Source of the DNA: an uncultured Gammaproteobacteria bacterium
Lineage (GTDB): Bacteria > Patescibacteriota > Patescibacteriia > Magasanikbacterales > GCA-002688135
Assembly: GCA_964536205.1 (NCBI GenBank)
Contig: CAZHVT010000003.1
Location: forward strand, 12,271-72,897
DNA length: 60,627 nucleotides
Direction of reading: 5' to 3'
Part shown: positions 37,653-43,130 of the stretch, one piece after another
Layout of the letters: each line of letters begins with the position of its first letter
Position numbering within the stretch: the first letter of the stretch is position 1
Notes under the pieces: generated by a model
What the model saw: the letters and a program-made list of their open reading frames with translations, nothing else
Database searches by the model: none
What the model was told of the DNA's origin: nothing
Program-made: the position numbers and the translations under genes

Positions 37653-38438
37653 ATGATTCCTTATTTTCAGTACACTCATTTTTTTATCGGCCCTGTACGC
37701 ATCCAAGTATGGGGTTTGTTTGTAGCACTCGGAGTTGTGGTTGCGGTGTGGTTGGCGACGCGAGAAGCGAAAAAGAGGGGATTGGATTGGAAGAAATTTT
37801 CTGATGCAGCTTTTTGGATTATTGTGTGGTCGTTTATTGGTGCGCGATTAGGACATGTGTTGTTTTATGAATGGGCGTATTATGCACAACATCTCGGCGA
37901 TATTTTTAAAATTTGGCATGGTGGATTTTCATCGTATGGAGGATTTATTGGTGGGACGGTTTCGGGATTTATTTTATTGAAAAAATATTCTGCACAACTA
38001 TTGAGTTATGCAGATTGTGTTGCATTAGGATTGTCTGCCGGTTGGACGATCGGGAGGATTGGATGTTTTTTCATTCATGACCACCCTGGAGTCATTACGA
38101 GTTTTGCTTTGGCGGTGCAAGAAAAATCTGAATGTGTGCCTGGTGAATTATGTGAATTAATTGCAGCGCGACACGATTTGGGTTTATATGATGGTATATT
38201 GACTGGAGTTATATTTGCACTGCTTGTTTTTTATAACAGAAGGAAACCAAAAACTGGCATGCTCATGGTTGTATTAATGATTGTGTATGGTTTTGTGAGA
38301 TTTTTCCTCGATTTCCTCCGCGCCACAGACTTGCCGCAAAGTGATATTCGGATATACTCACTTACACCAGCGCAATACTTGAGTATCGGATTGGTTGTGT
38401 GGGGTGTTTGGCTAGCAAGAAAAGTCTTGAAAAATTAG
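37653..38438 (+). CDS. lgt: Prolipoprotein diacylglyceryl transferase
   Basis: GGFSSYGGFIGG signature; multi-TM. Confidence 0.85.
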   Translation: MIPYFQYTHFFIGPVRIQVWGLFVALGVVVAVWLATREAKKRGLDWKKFSDAAFWIIVWSFIGARLGHVLFYEWAYYAQHLGDIFKIWHGGFSSYGGFIGGTVSGFILLKKYSAQLLSYADCVALGLSAGWTIGRIGCFFIHDHPGVITSFALAVQEKSECVPGELCELIAARHDLGLYDGILTGVIFALLVFYNRRKPKTGMLMVVLMIVYGFVRFFLDFLRATDLPQSDIRIYSLTPAQYLSIGLVVWGVWLARKVLKN

Positions 38439-38484
38439 ATCAATATCGACACTCGATGTCGATTCGACATCGAGTATCGAAATG

Positions 38485-38570
38485 AGGAGAGTTCGCCTAG
38501 TCTGGCCTATGGCGCTACCTTGGAAAGGTAGTGGGTTTGCGCCCACGCGGGTTCGAATCCCGCACTCTCC
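38485..38570 (+). tRNA. tRNA-Ser (anticodon GGA), type II with long variable arm
   Basis: Acceptor GGAGAGT/ACTCTCC, anticodon loop TTGGAAA, variable arm TGGGTTTGCGCCCA, T-loop GGGTTCGAATCCC. Confidence 0.8.
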
Positions 38571-38699
38571 GGATTTAAAGTTGCGTAGAGGATTAGAACC
38601 CCCTTCACGCGGGTAGCCCTCGTTCCTCGGGCCATCTCACTCATTGCGTTCGGATATGCAAAACTATCGTTTTTCATATCACTCACTTCATTCGTTCGT

Positions 38700-38717
38700 C
38701 CGAATCCCGCACTCTCC
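38700..38717 (+). repeat. 18-nt direct duplicate of the tRNA-Ser 3' end (CGAATCCCGCACTCTCCG)
   Basis: Identical to 38553-38570. Confidence 0.7.
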
Positions 38718-38796
38718 GTGTGTAAAAAATATTCTCAGGGGATGTTTTTGCTTTGTGCAATGTGTGATATACTCTCCGTATCTAAATGAATGAATT

Positions 38797-39066
38797 ATGG
38801 ATCCATATATTGAACTTTTACAGGCTCTTGTAGATTTTGAGCGTAAGGTTGTGGGGCCTATGATGACTCTCAAAAGATGCGAAGAGGCTGGTATACAGAT
38901 AGATGATGATCTGAATGTTGTGGGTTATGAAAAATCAGGACCCCAGTCGTATCAGCTTTTTTCTGGAGCAATTGCAAGATTGGGCGGTGATATATCCTTG
39001 AAACTTATCGGGAAATCTATTCAGCCTGTGCTAAAGAAATATCCCGATTTAAAGTTGGTTGAGTAA
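38797..39066 (+). CDS. Hypothetical protein (89 aa)
   Basis: ORF; -10-like TGTGATATACT upstream. Confidence 0.4.
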   Translation: MDPYIELLQALVDFERKVVGPMMTLKRCEEAGIQIDDDLNVVGYEKSGPQSYQLFSGAIARLGGDISLKLIGKSIQPVLKKYPDLKLVE

Positions 39067-39089
39067 TTTATTTTTTATATTACTAATTT

Positions 39090-39389
39090 TTGCTTATGGA
39101 TTTAGTAGAATTAATCCCAAATTTGATTGCAATGATAGCATCATTGATTGCTATATTTTTTCTTGCTCGATTTGCTATGCAAATGCGTGGTGGGAGCCTT
39201 GCAACAGTTGTTAATTTGCTTGTTTGGGGAATATTTTTGTCAGTTACTTTACATGCAGCGTTTGAGTTGGGTAGTCTCTATGGTTTGATTAGCGGCGAGA
39301 CTTTATTTGTTGTGATGGGTACACTTCTTTCAATTGGTTCGATATTGTTTATCGTTGCTGGATATTTGGGATTGAAGGCAAATAGATAA
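39090..39389 (+). CDS. Hypothetical membrane protein (99 aa, 3 TM)
   Basis: Hydrophobic profile. Confidence 0.4.
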   Translation: MLMDLVELIPNLIAMIASLIAIFFLARFAMQMRGGSLATVVNLLVWGIFLSVTLHAAFELGSLYGLISGETLFVVMGTLLSIGSILFIVAGYLGLKANR

Positions 39390-39405
39390 TCTTGGCAGGA
39401 GGTTT

Positions 39406-39606
39406 GTGATGAGTGATTATTGGGATCGGACGAATCGGATTATTCGTGAAGGGCGTGTGCCGCGATGTGCGTGTGGTGAAGTAAAGATTGCTGCGGATGA
39501 TCATGGGACATTTCAGTGTTTTACTTGTGATGTGCTTGGTGGTGGTCGACGTCTTGCTTCTGGCAAAAAAGCGCCGAATTTTGAAAAAGTTGAGTCTAAG
39601 GATTAG
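39406..39606 (+). CDS. Small zinc-ribbon protein (CxC...CxxC)
   Basis: RCACGE..CFTCD; SD AGGAGG upstream. Confidence 0.4.
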   Translation: MMSDYWDRTNRIIREGRVPRCACGEVKIAADDHGTFQCFTCDVLGGGRRLASGKKAPNFEKVESKD

Positions 39607-39627
39607 GGGAAATTGTCCCCTTTTTTT
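39606..39627 (+). terminator. GGGGAAATTGTCCCC + T7
   Basis: Direct read. Confidence 0.65.
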
Positions 39628-39755
39628 GTTTGAGGTGTAGGCATGTCAAAATGGTCTACTTCAAGTCTATACAGATGATATGGTATAATAAGGACGATTT
39701 AACGTAGGTAGTATAATGGTTTTAGAATGATTGCTATTTTTTAATGTAAGAGTTT

Positions 39756-40946
39756 GTGTTTAGAAATATAAAAATAAAAACAAAATTAGTCATCAGCTCA
39801 TTATTGGTTTCAATCTTCGCTCTTGGTGTTGTTGGTGGCCTATCCTTTAATGCTGCAAAAAAAGCGCTTGAGAACGAGCTTTTCGACAAGGCCAGCTCTC
39901 TGTCGGAGGAAAAGGAATTATTGCTGGAGGCTTTTTTGGAAACGCAGTTGGCTAATTTACGATATCTTGCGCAGGATCCAACTGTTGTGCGACTTACTAA
40001 AAAAATGGTTAACTTTGATGGAAGTTCTTCTGAAGAAGATCAACAAGATGCTTACCAAGAACTTAAAAAACATCTTACTGCATTTGCTGATTTCTATGGT
40101 GGGCCGGGAATGGATGGAGGAACTTATGCTGATGTGATGATAGCTGATTTGACTGGATATATGTGGATTGGAACATATGGTCCGGATGAAGGAGGAAATG
40201 AATTTGATACAGAATGGTTTAGAGAAAGTAATAAGGGTATTTATTTGGGAGATATTAGTTATAATCCCACCATGCGCCAGACGACCCAAATTGCTGCTAT
40301 CCCAATTAAAGATGGGCAAAAACATATTGCCATTTTGCAACTAGAAACAAACATAAGGTCTATTAATGAAATAGTGAATCGGCCATCTGAACGTGGAATT
40401 GCTGGTGATTCATATATTCTGAGTAGTGGAAATGTTATTTTGACTGATCTTGTGTCTGATAAAAAAGCTCGAGGAAATCATCAAATAAATAATATTGCTA
40501 CACAAGCAGCTCGAGAGACAGGTGAGGAGGTTGCATTGTTGTATGATAATCACAATGATGTTTCGGTTGTTGGTTCTGTTCATCAATTTTCAAATTTGCA
40601 AGGAGGACATGGTGGTGATGATCATGACTTATTAGTAGATCTTGAGTGGTTGATTGTAACTGAATTGGAGGTTTCTGAAACGGTTGGTGCTTTGAGAAAT
40701 CAACTTATATTATTTAGTTTTTTGGTTATCTTGATGACTGCAATTTTGTTTTATCTGATGGCTAGTGCTATTTCAAAGTCTATTAAAAAGGTTCGTAACG
40801 TAGCTATTGAAATTGCTCGTGGTAATATGGACGTAGAAGTTGATATATCGGGAAAAGATGAGATTGCAGAACTTTCTCAAGCTATTGAAAAAATGAGAAC
40901 AAGTTTGAGGGTTGTAATGGAGGAGTATGAGAGAAAGTTACAATAA
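39756..40946 (+). CDS. Membrane sensor: TM - periplasmic (Cache-like) domain - TM - HAMP, with no output domain
   Basis: Two TM segments; HAMP heptads in the C-terminal 55 aa; GTG start. Confidence 0.55.
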   Translation: MFRNIKIKTKLVISSLLVSIFALGVVGGLSFNAAKKALENELFDKASSLSEEKELLLEAFLETQLANLRYLAQDPTVVRLTKKMVNFDGSSSEEDQQDAYQELKKHLTAFADFYGGPGMDGGTYADVMIADLTGYMWIGTYGPDEGGNEFDTEWFRESNKGIYLGDISYNPTMRQTTQIAAIPIKDGQKHIAILQLETNIRSINEIVNRPSERGIAGDSYILSSGNVILTDLVSDKKARGNHQINNIATQAARETGEEVALLYDNHNDVSVVGSVHQFSNLQGGHGGDDHDLLVDLEWLIVTELEVSETVGALRNQLILFSFLVILMTAILFYLMASAISKSIKKVRNVAIEIARGNMDVEVDISGKDEIAELSQAIEKMRTSLRVVMEEYERKLQ

Positions 40947-40976
40947 TTGATACTCTTTTATTTATTAGTAACATAC

Positions 40977-41003
40977 AAAAGCCAGAATGATTCTGGTTTT
41001 TTT
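40977..41003 (+). terminator. AAAAGCCAGAATGATTCTGG + T7
   Basis: Direct read. Confidence 0.65.
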
Positions 41004-41053
41004 GTGGCGATTCTTAACTTGCTTCGAGTCGGTCATGTGGTACTATTTGTGAT

Positions 41054-41824
41054 ATGAATTGGGCATTAATTACAGGGGCATCATCAGGAATTGGGAGGGA
41101 ATTAGCGTTATTGGCTGCGTCTGACGGTTATGATGTTGTTTTGGTTGCACGTCGGGAGGAGAAGTTGAATGAATTGGCGAGAGAAATTGGTGAGAAGTTT
41201 GATGTGAAAACTCATGTGGAATCAATTGATTTGTCTGCTATGAATGGAGCTGATTTGTTGTTTGATTCATTGGTACATGAGGGTATTGTTATTGATGTCT
41301 TGGTGAATAATGCCGGGTTTGGTTTGGCGGGGAATTATATTGAAACAGATGCAAAACGTGAGCGTCAGATGATCGATTTAAATATTACTGCCTTGACTCG
41401 TTTGACCCGTCTTTTTTTACCGGGTATGCTCTCTCGACAGCATGGGTATGTTATGCAAGTTGCAAGTGTTGCTGGGTTTTTTCCCGGTGCATATATGAGT
41501 GTGTATTTTGCAACTAAAGCGTATGTTTTGAATTATGCTGAAGGTTTGGCGGAGGAATTGAAGGGGACTGGTGTGTATGTCACCGCTTTGTGTCCAGGTG
41601 CTACGAAAACGGAATTTTTTGATGTTGCAACTTCTGCGGAGGGTGGTTTGAAAAAAATTAAGGGTCAGCCGAGCGCGCGCGATGTTGCGGAATTTGGGTG
41701 GCAAGCAATGAAAGATAAACAAGTTGTCGCAGTGCATGGTTTTAAAAATAGATTATTTATTTTCTTGTCACGACTAGTTCCGCGAGCATTTGTGCGCGGG
41801 CGAGTTGGACAAATTAACAAATAG
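41054..41824 (+). CDS. SDR-family oxidoreductase
   Basis: TGASSGIGRELA, NNAG, YxxxK (YFATKAY) motifs. Confidence 0.85.
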   Translation: MNWALITGASSGIGRELALLAASDGYDVVLVARREEKLNELAREIGEKFDVKTHVESIDLSAMNGADLLFDSLVHEGIVIDVLVNNAGFGLAGNYIETDAKRERQMIDLNITALTRLTRLFLPGMLSRQHGYVMQVASVAGFFPGAYMSVYFATKAYVLNYAEGLAEELKGTGVYVTALCPGATKTEFFDVATSAEGGLKKIKGQPSARDVAEFGWQAMKDKQVVAVHGFKNRLFIFLSRLVPRAFVRGRVGQINK

Positions 41825-43045: not shown

Positions 43046-43130
43046 GGAGAGATGTCTGAGCGGTTTAAGGAGCTGGTCTTGAAAACCAGTGTGGGGAAAC
43101 TCACCCAGGGTTCGAATCCCTGTCTCTCCG
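43046..43130 (+). tRNA. tRNA-Ser (anticodon UGA), type II
   Basis: Acceptor GGAGAGA/TCTCTCC, anticodon loop CTTGAAA, long variable arm, T-loop GGTTCGAATCC. Confidence 0.8.

Follow-up and report, generated by a model that had tools for sequence, protein, structure and literature searches.

Short-range duplication of the tRNA-Ser(GGA) 3' end downstream of lgt in a CPR bacterium and its recurrence in related lineages

Results

The tRNA-Ser(GGA) gene lies within a conserved frame

We analysed a 60,627-nt stretch of DNA (the window) carrying an intact tRNA-Ser(GGA) gene with no encoded CCA (38486..38571, + strand; ARAGORN; Rfam RF00005, 53 bits). The genes upstream are gatC, gatA, a LOG-family gene and lgt, the last encoding prolipoprotein diacylglyceryl transferase (37653..38438, + strand; Pfam LGT 5e-53, TIGR00544) and serving as the conserved left anchor of the locus. 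The conserved right anchor is an SDR oxidoreductase gene identified by Pfam (41054..41824, + strand), with DsbA and VKOR genes following it. A search with the window Lgt matched only Parcubacteria-, Magasanikbacteria-, Uhrbacteria- and Falkowbacteria-type MAGs, and the host is a CPR/Patescibacteria bacterium. The order lgt to tRNA-Ser(GGA) was held in ~25/51 of the CPR species loci fetched, and the DsbA-VKOR pair also occurs downstream of the tRNA in L088, L004 and L036. The frame lgt-tRNA...SDR(-DsbA-VKOR) is common to the window and L057/L058, the closest relative covering the site, and is therefore ancestral.

The gap between the lgt stop codon and the tRNA is filled by a palindrome (38443-38483) that is near-perfect, its 20-nt arms separated by 1 nt; in L057 this position is occupied by another palindrome, whose arms are 25 nt long. 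These palindromes may be processing or termination signals. The + strand showed a strong GC skew, about +0.2 to +0.4 per kb, that stayed uniform over nearly all 60 kb of the window.

The tRNA 3' end is exactly duplicated

Two exact + strand copies of the 18-mer CGAATCCCGCACTCTCCG were found, at 38554-38571 and 38701-38718, 147 nt apart from start to start and separated by a 129-nt spacer (38572-38700). The 18-nt duplication of this tRNA 3' end claimed in the original prediction is real, with coordinates that had been one base too low, and the ~130 bp given for its spacing agrees with the distance measured here. In tRNA numbering, copy 1 extends from T-loop position C56 to discriminator position G73 (18/18 identical) and forms an attL-like junction. 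Copy 2 is attR-like and lies outside any tRNA: the adjoining T-stem 5' strand is absent, and the Rfam tRNA model gave no tRNA-like match there even at E up to 10. The repeat stretches to 21 nt with one mismatch (GTTCG versus GTCCG).

A window-wide scan allowing ≤3 mismatches, which took up the suggestion to look for further copies, yielded one additional match, at 43113, in the 3' end of another serine tRNA. Chance would supply 0.02 such matches, and none of 100 shuffles reached three. The repeat region was 100% identical in JGI 3300009375 and Logan SRR8062333, making three independent assemblies in all, and the repeat is therefore no assembly artefact. The exact Lgt protein was present on five contigs, all apparently alike, with site identity checked for two (L001, L002). 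The likelihood that the repeat is a chance match or an artefact is accordingly negligible: the shuffles speak against the former and the identical assemblies against the latter, and both are excluded.

Weaker similarities lie further downstream. A possible third, decayed copy of 9 nt (ACTCTCCGT, 38771..38779, + strand) is weakly evidenced and overlaps a -10-like TATACT box; a 10-nt flank resemblance noted with it, AATGAATGAA, matches the tRNA flank of L085. In addition, TCCCGATTTAAAGTTG (39042..39057, + strand), overlapping the last seven codons of orf89, matches the copy-1 junction TCCGGATTTAAAGTTG (38568-38583) at 15/16 positions.

The spacer between the copies is geneless

The 129-nt spacer (38572..38700) contains no gene and no ORF of note. 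Together with copy 2 it has a GC content of about 0.49, compared to 0.41 for the window. It had no homologue in the fetched or searched sequences besides the same contig, and it is not a copy of anything nearby in the window. Rfam searches of 38440-38800 at gathering and permissive thresholds (E up to 10) recovered the tRNA only, and no promoter or terminator was predicted around the spacer. Folding was only slightly better than that of shuffled sequences (z-score -1.3 to -1.7). A closing helix between spacer and copy 2 was rejected, as their complementarity was at chance level (equalled in 585/1000 shuffles). The window itself thus gave no support for a structured RNA.

Three other candidates were discarded. 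Evidence for a degenerate second tRNA in the spacer came down to the recurrence of CACGCGGGT, which was marginal (19/500 shuffles, p about 0.04). A tRNA-like gene on the minus strand had no Infernal or ARAGORN match and no acceptor partner. A retroviral-type primer-binding site appears improbable by inference, there being no reverse transcriptase and the orientation and context being wrong.

A lineage-specific segment follows the second copy

The interval from copy 2 to the conserved SDR gene (38719..41053, + strand) is lineage-specific and differs from that of the sister L057/L058. Its first gene is orf89 (38797-39066), an 89-aa ORFan without a homologue among 5.8 billion proteins, which ruled it out as a locus anchor. 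Two small ORFs with no family match, orf97 (39096-39389) and orf65 (39409-39606), are followed by a gene for a dCache+HAMP membrane protein (39756-40946) that stops right after HAMP, without an output domain. The best homologues of this protein have 46% identity and 616-643 aa, one being named as a Thermodesulfobacteriota histidine kinase; its nearest homologues belong to other phyla, and dCache-HAMP-only relatives of ~410-470 aa also exist. GC content over 38572-41053, spacer and copy 2 included, was 0.378 compared to 0.414 for the window. The right edge of the segment has no boundary repeat, only a terminator before SDR.

Intergenic positions 39045-39096 and 39695-39762, before orf97 and the dCache gene respectively, share colinear similarity (CGATTTAAAGTTGGTTGAGTAAT, CGATTTAACGTAGGTAGTATAAT, then T-rich blocks). 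These shared blocks are probably promoter-like sequences.

The genes at 38797-40946 had been proposed as cargo of a decayed island. Their lineage specificity, AT-richness, ORFan content and a sensor with its nearest homologues in other phyla fit that proposal, but the right-hand boundary repeat is missing. They are lineage-specific accessory DNA that is not demonstrably bounded by the repeat.

The nearest relatives lack the second copy

In L057/L058 (Lgt 71% identical to that of the window, SDR 80-85%), lgt and tRNA-Ser(GGA) are followed directly by DUF1801 and NUDIX genes and then SDR, and the second copy of the tRNA end is absent. Everything from tRNA to SDR differs between this lineage and the window, where the interval comprises 38572-41053 and includes the 147-bp repeat unit. 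The repeat is also absent from the next relative, L085 (Lgt 60%). Presence/absence polymorphism within the conserved frame was therefore observed at the genus/family level, not at strain level. Two further relatives were uninformative. For P0002 (Lgt 78%; L054, L055, L056 and L003, four assemblies) the contigs end ≤30 nt after lgt, at the expected start of the tRNA, which may reflect an assembly break at a repeated or variable locus; for P0004 (Lgt 63%) the single contig shows no tRNA gene and breaks off about 200 nt past lgt.

Comparison of this locus among relatives, as had been recommended, thus revealed a kept frame and an indel polymorphism (L057/L058), but also the same duplication in nine other species. 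Because indel polymorphism exists among relatives, the locus differs from one where relatives share the duplication with conserved flanks and no indels, the pattern named in advance as speaking against a mobile scar.

Short-range duplication recurs at this tRNA across CPR species

The recurrence of the duplication was scored in 28 species with a tRNA-Ser(GGA) locus and sufficient downstream sequence. In ten (the window, L013, L015, L019, L020, L021, L023, L025, L031 and L047), the tRNA 3' end recurs 54-182 nt downstream. No such copy was found at other tRNA genes on the same CPR DNA (0/10; hypergeometric p about 0.03 vs 10/28). In the window and seven of the nine other carriers, identity begins between tRNA positions 54 and 58, mostly at C56, and extends to G73/C74; the exceptions are L015, which has a 14-nt block only, and L047, which has a heterologous copy. 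On the Lgt tree the repeat was patchy, being present in the window and absent from its two nearest relatives (L057, L085), present in 4 of about 12 species of clade M (Magasanikbacteria-like) and in 5/5 species of clade F (Falkowbacteria-like), and absent from the clade F sister L049.

Several carriers show differences between their two copies. In L021, L025 and L023 the tRNA gene lacks CCA and the downstream copy alone runs on into CCA, which fits a displaced original 3' end on its native flank. L013 and L047 have a homologous flank after copy 2. The downstream copy (18-19 nt) is identical in four clade F species despite changes in the tRNA itself: in L013 the T-stem, and in L047 the T-stem and acceptor stem, have changed, and their downstream copies equal that of sister species. 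In L019, the sequence past both copies is also partly duplicated (TTGGATA.AAAGAGATGAGAAG), resembling a tandem duplication.

Spacers across the carriers are GC-rich (0.47-0.56) within AT-rich genomes, and no similarity was detectable among those of the window, clade F and clade M. Within clade F (L013, L020, L031) the spacers are 72-80% identical, compared to 48-53% for lgt four-fold sites and 50-66% for neighbouring intergenic DNA. The clade F inserts are either younger than the genomes, hence mobile, or under selection. Their elements fold no better than shuffles, and RNAalifold gave 11 pairs with essentially no covariation. Clade M elements gave fold z-scores of -2.1 to -4.1 from three sequences only. 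In their putative closing helix, GGGATTCG, an inverted T-arm motif, pairs with CGAATCCC in the second copy, and its changes track the T-loop. Outside the window, complementarity between spacer and copy 2 was only marginal relative to shuffles. Two candidate features of the clade F spacers were rejected. A hammerhead-like UGAUGAG has its core U replaced by C in L031. A small peptide (SD-like GAGGG plus ATG, frame kept with a 3-nt indel) had 8/8 non-synonymous substitutions between L013 and L031, and this short ORF is for that reason not coding.

Other mobile DNA enters at the same site

Further mobile DNA was found at this tRNA in other species. Two clade M species carry a 1.7-kb element right after C74 of tRNA-Ser(GGA), with a single gene for a large serine recombinase (L012, 4359-6079; L017, 6909-8633). 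The two elements are 91% identical over the 1.8 kb compared, though the tRNA 3' ends differ. The clade M species L016 (6870-6920), with a third tRNA 3' end, shares the first 51 nt of the element before its contig ends. The recombinase ORF is on the reverse strand and reads into the tRNA gene. The far end of the element has no tRNA-like sequence; lacking a tRNA-like half-site there, the element was rejected as the parent of the short inserts. In L052 (6770-7208), a gene for an 88-aa GIY-YIG nuclease is flanked by the intact tRNA-Ser(GGA) gene on one side and by a 5' pseudo-copy of it on the other. This pseudo-copy comprises 12 nt of flanking sequence with nt 1-31, then a hairpin insert rich in GC, then nt 32-47, and the stop codon of the nuclease ORF falls within the tRNA. 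Still other species have restriction-modification and Bro-N genes after the tRNA.

A separate arrangement was seen on an unrelated 695-kb contig (L079, 700-1350, minus strand). Two ~131-nt units lie in tandem after a tRNA-Ser(GCT) that shares the 18-mer end, and in each unit the tRNA 3' end recurs as a 10-nt direct copy and a 23-nt inverted copy. The adjacent tRNA-Ser(GGA) is preceded by a 21-nt 5' fragment and followed by an inverted copy of the T-arm.

A recombinase that could account for the window repeat was sought in several ways. Phmmer searches of the 60-kb window with an approximate XerD query and the L017 serine recombinase gave no match better than E 0.16; the controls were found, with the XerD query recovering the integrases of a control prophage. 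When 49 window ORFs were summarised by Pfam family, the 25 families listed of 78 included no recombinase. In 26 related loci, the 4.5 kb following the tRNA contained no recombinase other than the serine recombinase above. The search for integrase genes recommended alongside the original prediction was therefore negative in the window and these 26 loci, bar a serine recombinase whose element has no repeat.

No kb-scale element bounded by these repeats occurred in any locus examined, and IMG/VR, metagenome contigs, GenBank phages and the fetched loci yielded no attP or parent element. Viral-contig matches to the 18-mer proved to be phage tRNA arrays; those to the clade F 17-mer fell in coding DNA, in ordinary tRNA genes and, once, at a boundary with a tRNA 3' fragment in a non-CPR prophage. 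Matches in the metagenome scan were unrelated tRNAs and chance.

Discussion

The second 18-mer is probably, in our moderately confident reading, an att-type duplicate at an integration hot spot, of which a tiny integrase-less remnant is left. A circular element carrying a copy of the last ~18-20 nt of tRNA-Ser(GGA) would have recombined with the chromosomal gene, giving one junction with an intact tRNA and another with a partial 3' copy. The DNA left between them would be a 129-bp integrase-less remnant, a minimal CIME-like relic, and the adjoining 2.3 kb of lineage-specific genes may be part of the same turnover zone. The empty site would be expected to join the tRNA body to ...CTCTCCGTGTGTAAAAAATATTC, and the circular (attP) junction would be expected to read ...TTCGTTCGTCCGAATCCCGCACTCTCCGGATTTAAAGTTGCG. 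We infer the maker of the duplication (a tyrosine or serine recombinase), which copy is the original, and the deletion of the rest of the element.

The anatomy agrees with this reading in part. As at att sites, the repeat is a direct copy of the 3' part of its target tRNA (18/18), while no integrase or recombinase was detected within or beside the repeats in the window. As in a CIME, both att-like repeats are kept, with 129 bp between them and the integration and transfer genes lost, while IMG/VR, metagenome contigs, phages and fetched loci held no related autonomous element. The integrase footprint first proposed for this site is partly supported: it gains from the att anatomy, the indel polymorphism and the mobile DNA at the site, and loses from the missing integrase, attP and parent. 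Our reading also draws on the exactness of the repeat, the block boundaries shared with seven other carriers, the CCA reached only by the downstream copy in L021, L025 and L023, the patchy distribution on the Lgt tree and the excess at tRNA-Ser(GGA) over other tRNA genes (10/28 versus 0/10). Other observations count against a relic. Random decay does not predict that all ten species should have short inserts (54-182 nt), and a plain dead scar does not predict the high conservation of the clade F spacers. The downstream copies of L013 and L047, which depart from the tRNA of their own species and equal that of sister species, also weigh against it.

A rival reading is a maintained functional module, either a mini integrative element, non-autonomous and mobilised in trans, or an RNA/DNA element in the tRNA trailer with a 3' end that mimics the one of tRNA-Ser; the insert would be preserved by selection rather than decay. 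We regard this as unlikely, although several findings point towards it: a feature of similar size recurs in three clades, all five clade F species carry the repeat, and their spacers (72-80% identical) exceed both four-fold sites (48-53%) and neighbouring intergenic DNA (50-66%). The 18-19 nt copy is unchanged in four clade F species even where the tRNA has changed, spacers are GC-rich (0.47-0.56) in AT-rich genomes, and in three clade M sequences the folds beat shuffles (z -2.1 to -4.1) with a putative closing helix whose changes track the T-loop. This support comes from other clades and not from the window itself, whose sister lineages lack the feature and whose spacer shares no similarity with those of either clade. 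The window fold (z only -1.3 to -1.7) and clade F folds (no better than shuffles; 11 RNAalifold pairs, essentially no covariation) also argue against a module, as do spacer/copy 2 complementarity at chance in the window (585/1000) and marginal elsewhere, the lack of an Rfam family, and the lack of a predicted promoter or terminator in the window. The wider form of this idea, to which we give similarly little weight, is a CPR family of tRNA-Ser(GGA)-specific units of ~55-180 bp, either non-autonomous mini-elements or tRNA-trailer modules, with one member in the window. Each would end in a copy of the last 17-20 nt of the tRNA, and upkeep by selection or repeated trans-mobilisation would mean that they are not dead scars.

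Duplication could also arise without a recombinase, through slippage, template switching or break repair near the palindromic T-arm, for instance after cleavage by a homing endonuclease. Such a process would be in keeping with the partly duplicated flank past both copies in L019 (TTGGATA.AAAGAGATGAGAAG), with the GIY-YIG gene of L052 beside a duplicated 5' half plus 12 nt of flank, and with the tandem ~131-nt units of L079 bearing direct and inverted copies of the tRNA end. We nevertheless consider it quite improbable for the window, where the 129-nt spacer copies nothing nearby and the recurrence of CACGCGGGT is marginal (19/500 shuffles). Repeat boundaries that are identical across independent lineages, and a CCA reached by only one copy in three species, likewise speak against it. 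An att-type relic remains our preferred reading.

CPR/Patescibacteria have tiny genomes known mostly from metagenomes, and their mobile DNA and integration sites are little known. In several CPR clades, foreign DNA has entered repeatedly at the tRNA-Ser(GGA) 3' flank downstream of lgt, with entries that include serine-recombinase elements, GIY-YIG genes, restriction-modification genes and ORFans, and knowing of this site helps to delimit accessory DNA in CPR MAGs. Should the short inserts between repeats turn out to be maintained or mobile, no smaller integrative units would have been described; otherwise they would be an ordinary recombination footprint.

Integrative elements reportedly use tRNA genes as integration sites, the names attached to this being Reiter (1989), Williams (2002) and the Islander approach. 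The locus resembles such elements in having an intact tRNA at one end and a direct partial 3' copy, from T-loop to 3' end, at the other. It differs in size, as these elements usually span 9-120 kb, and the window has 129 bp between the copies with no integrase and no cargo between them. That tRNA 3' fragments are footprints of integration is textbook knowledge and has been reviewed (PMC9897764). Also comparable are accretion arrays and CIMEs, decayed cis-mobilizable elements that keep attL and attR and have no integrase (PMC5704250). The window likewise has integrase-less DNA between att-like repeats at a tRNA 3' end, and its possible third, decayed copy and adjacent foreign genes recall accretion arrays. 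Described CIMEs are kb-sized, in contrast to a 129-bp relic for which a helper element is not known and mobilisation is putative. The ssrA islands of Dehalococcoides are 10-20 kb, carry the serine recombinase DsiB, whose gene runs into the target gene, and have a 20-bp 3'-end direct repeat starting mid-T-loop, with several repeats downstream (PMC3146451). The window repeat also starts in the T-loop, and the recombinase ORF of L012/L017 also runs into its target gene, but the CPR serine-recombinase element, unlike these islands, leaves no tRNA-like copy at its far end. What is new here, relative to all of these systems, is the short range of the duplication plus its recurrence at one tRNA across CPR clades.
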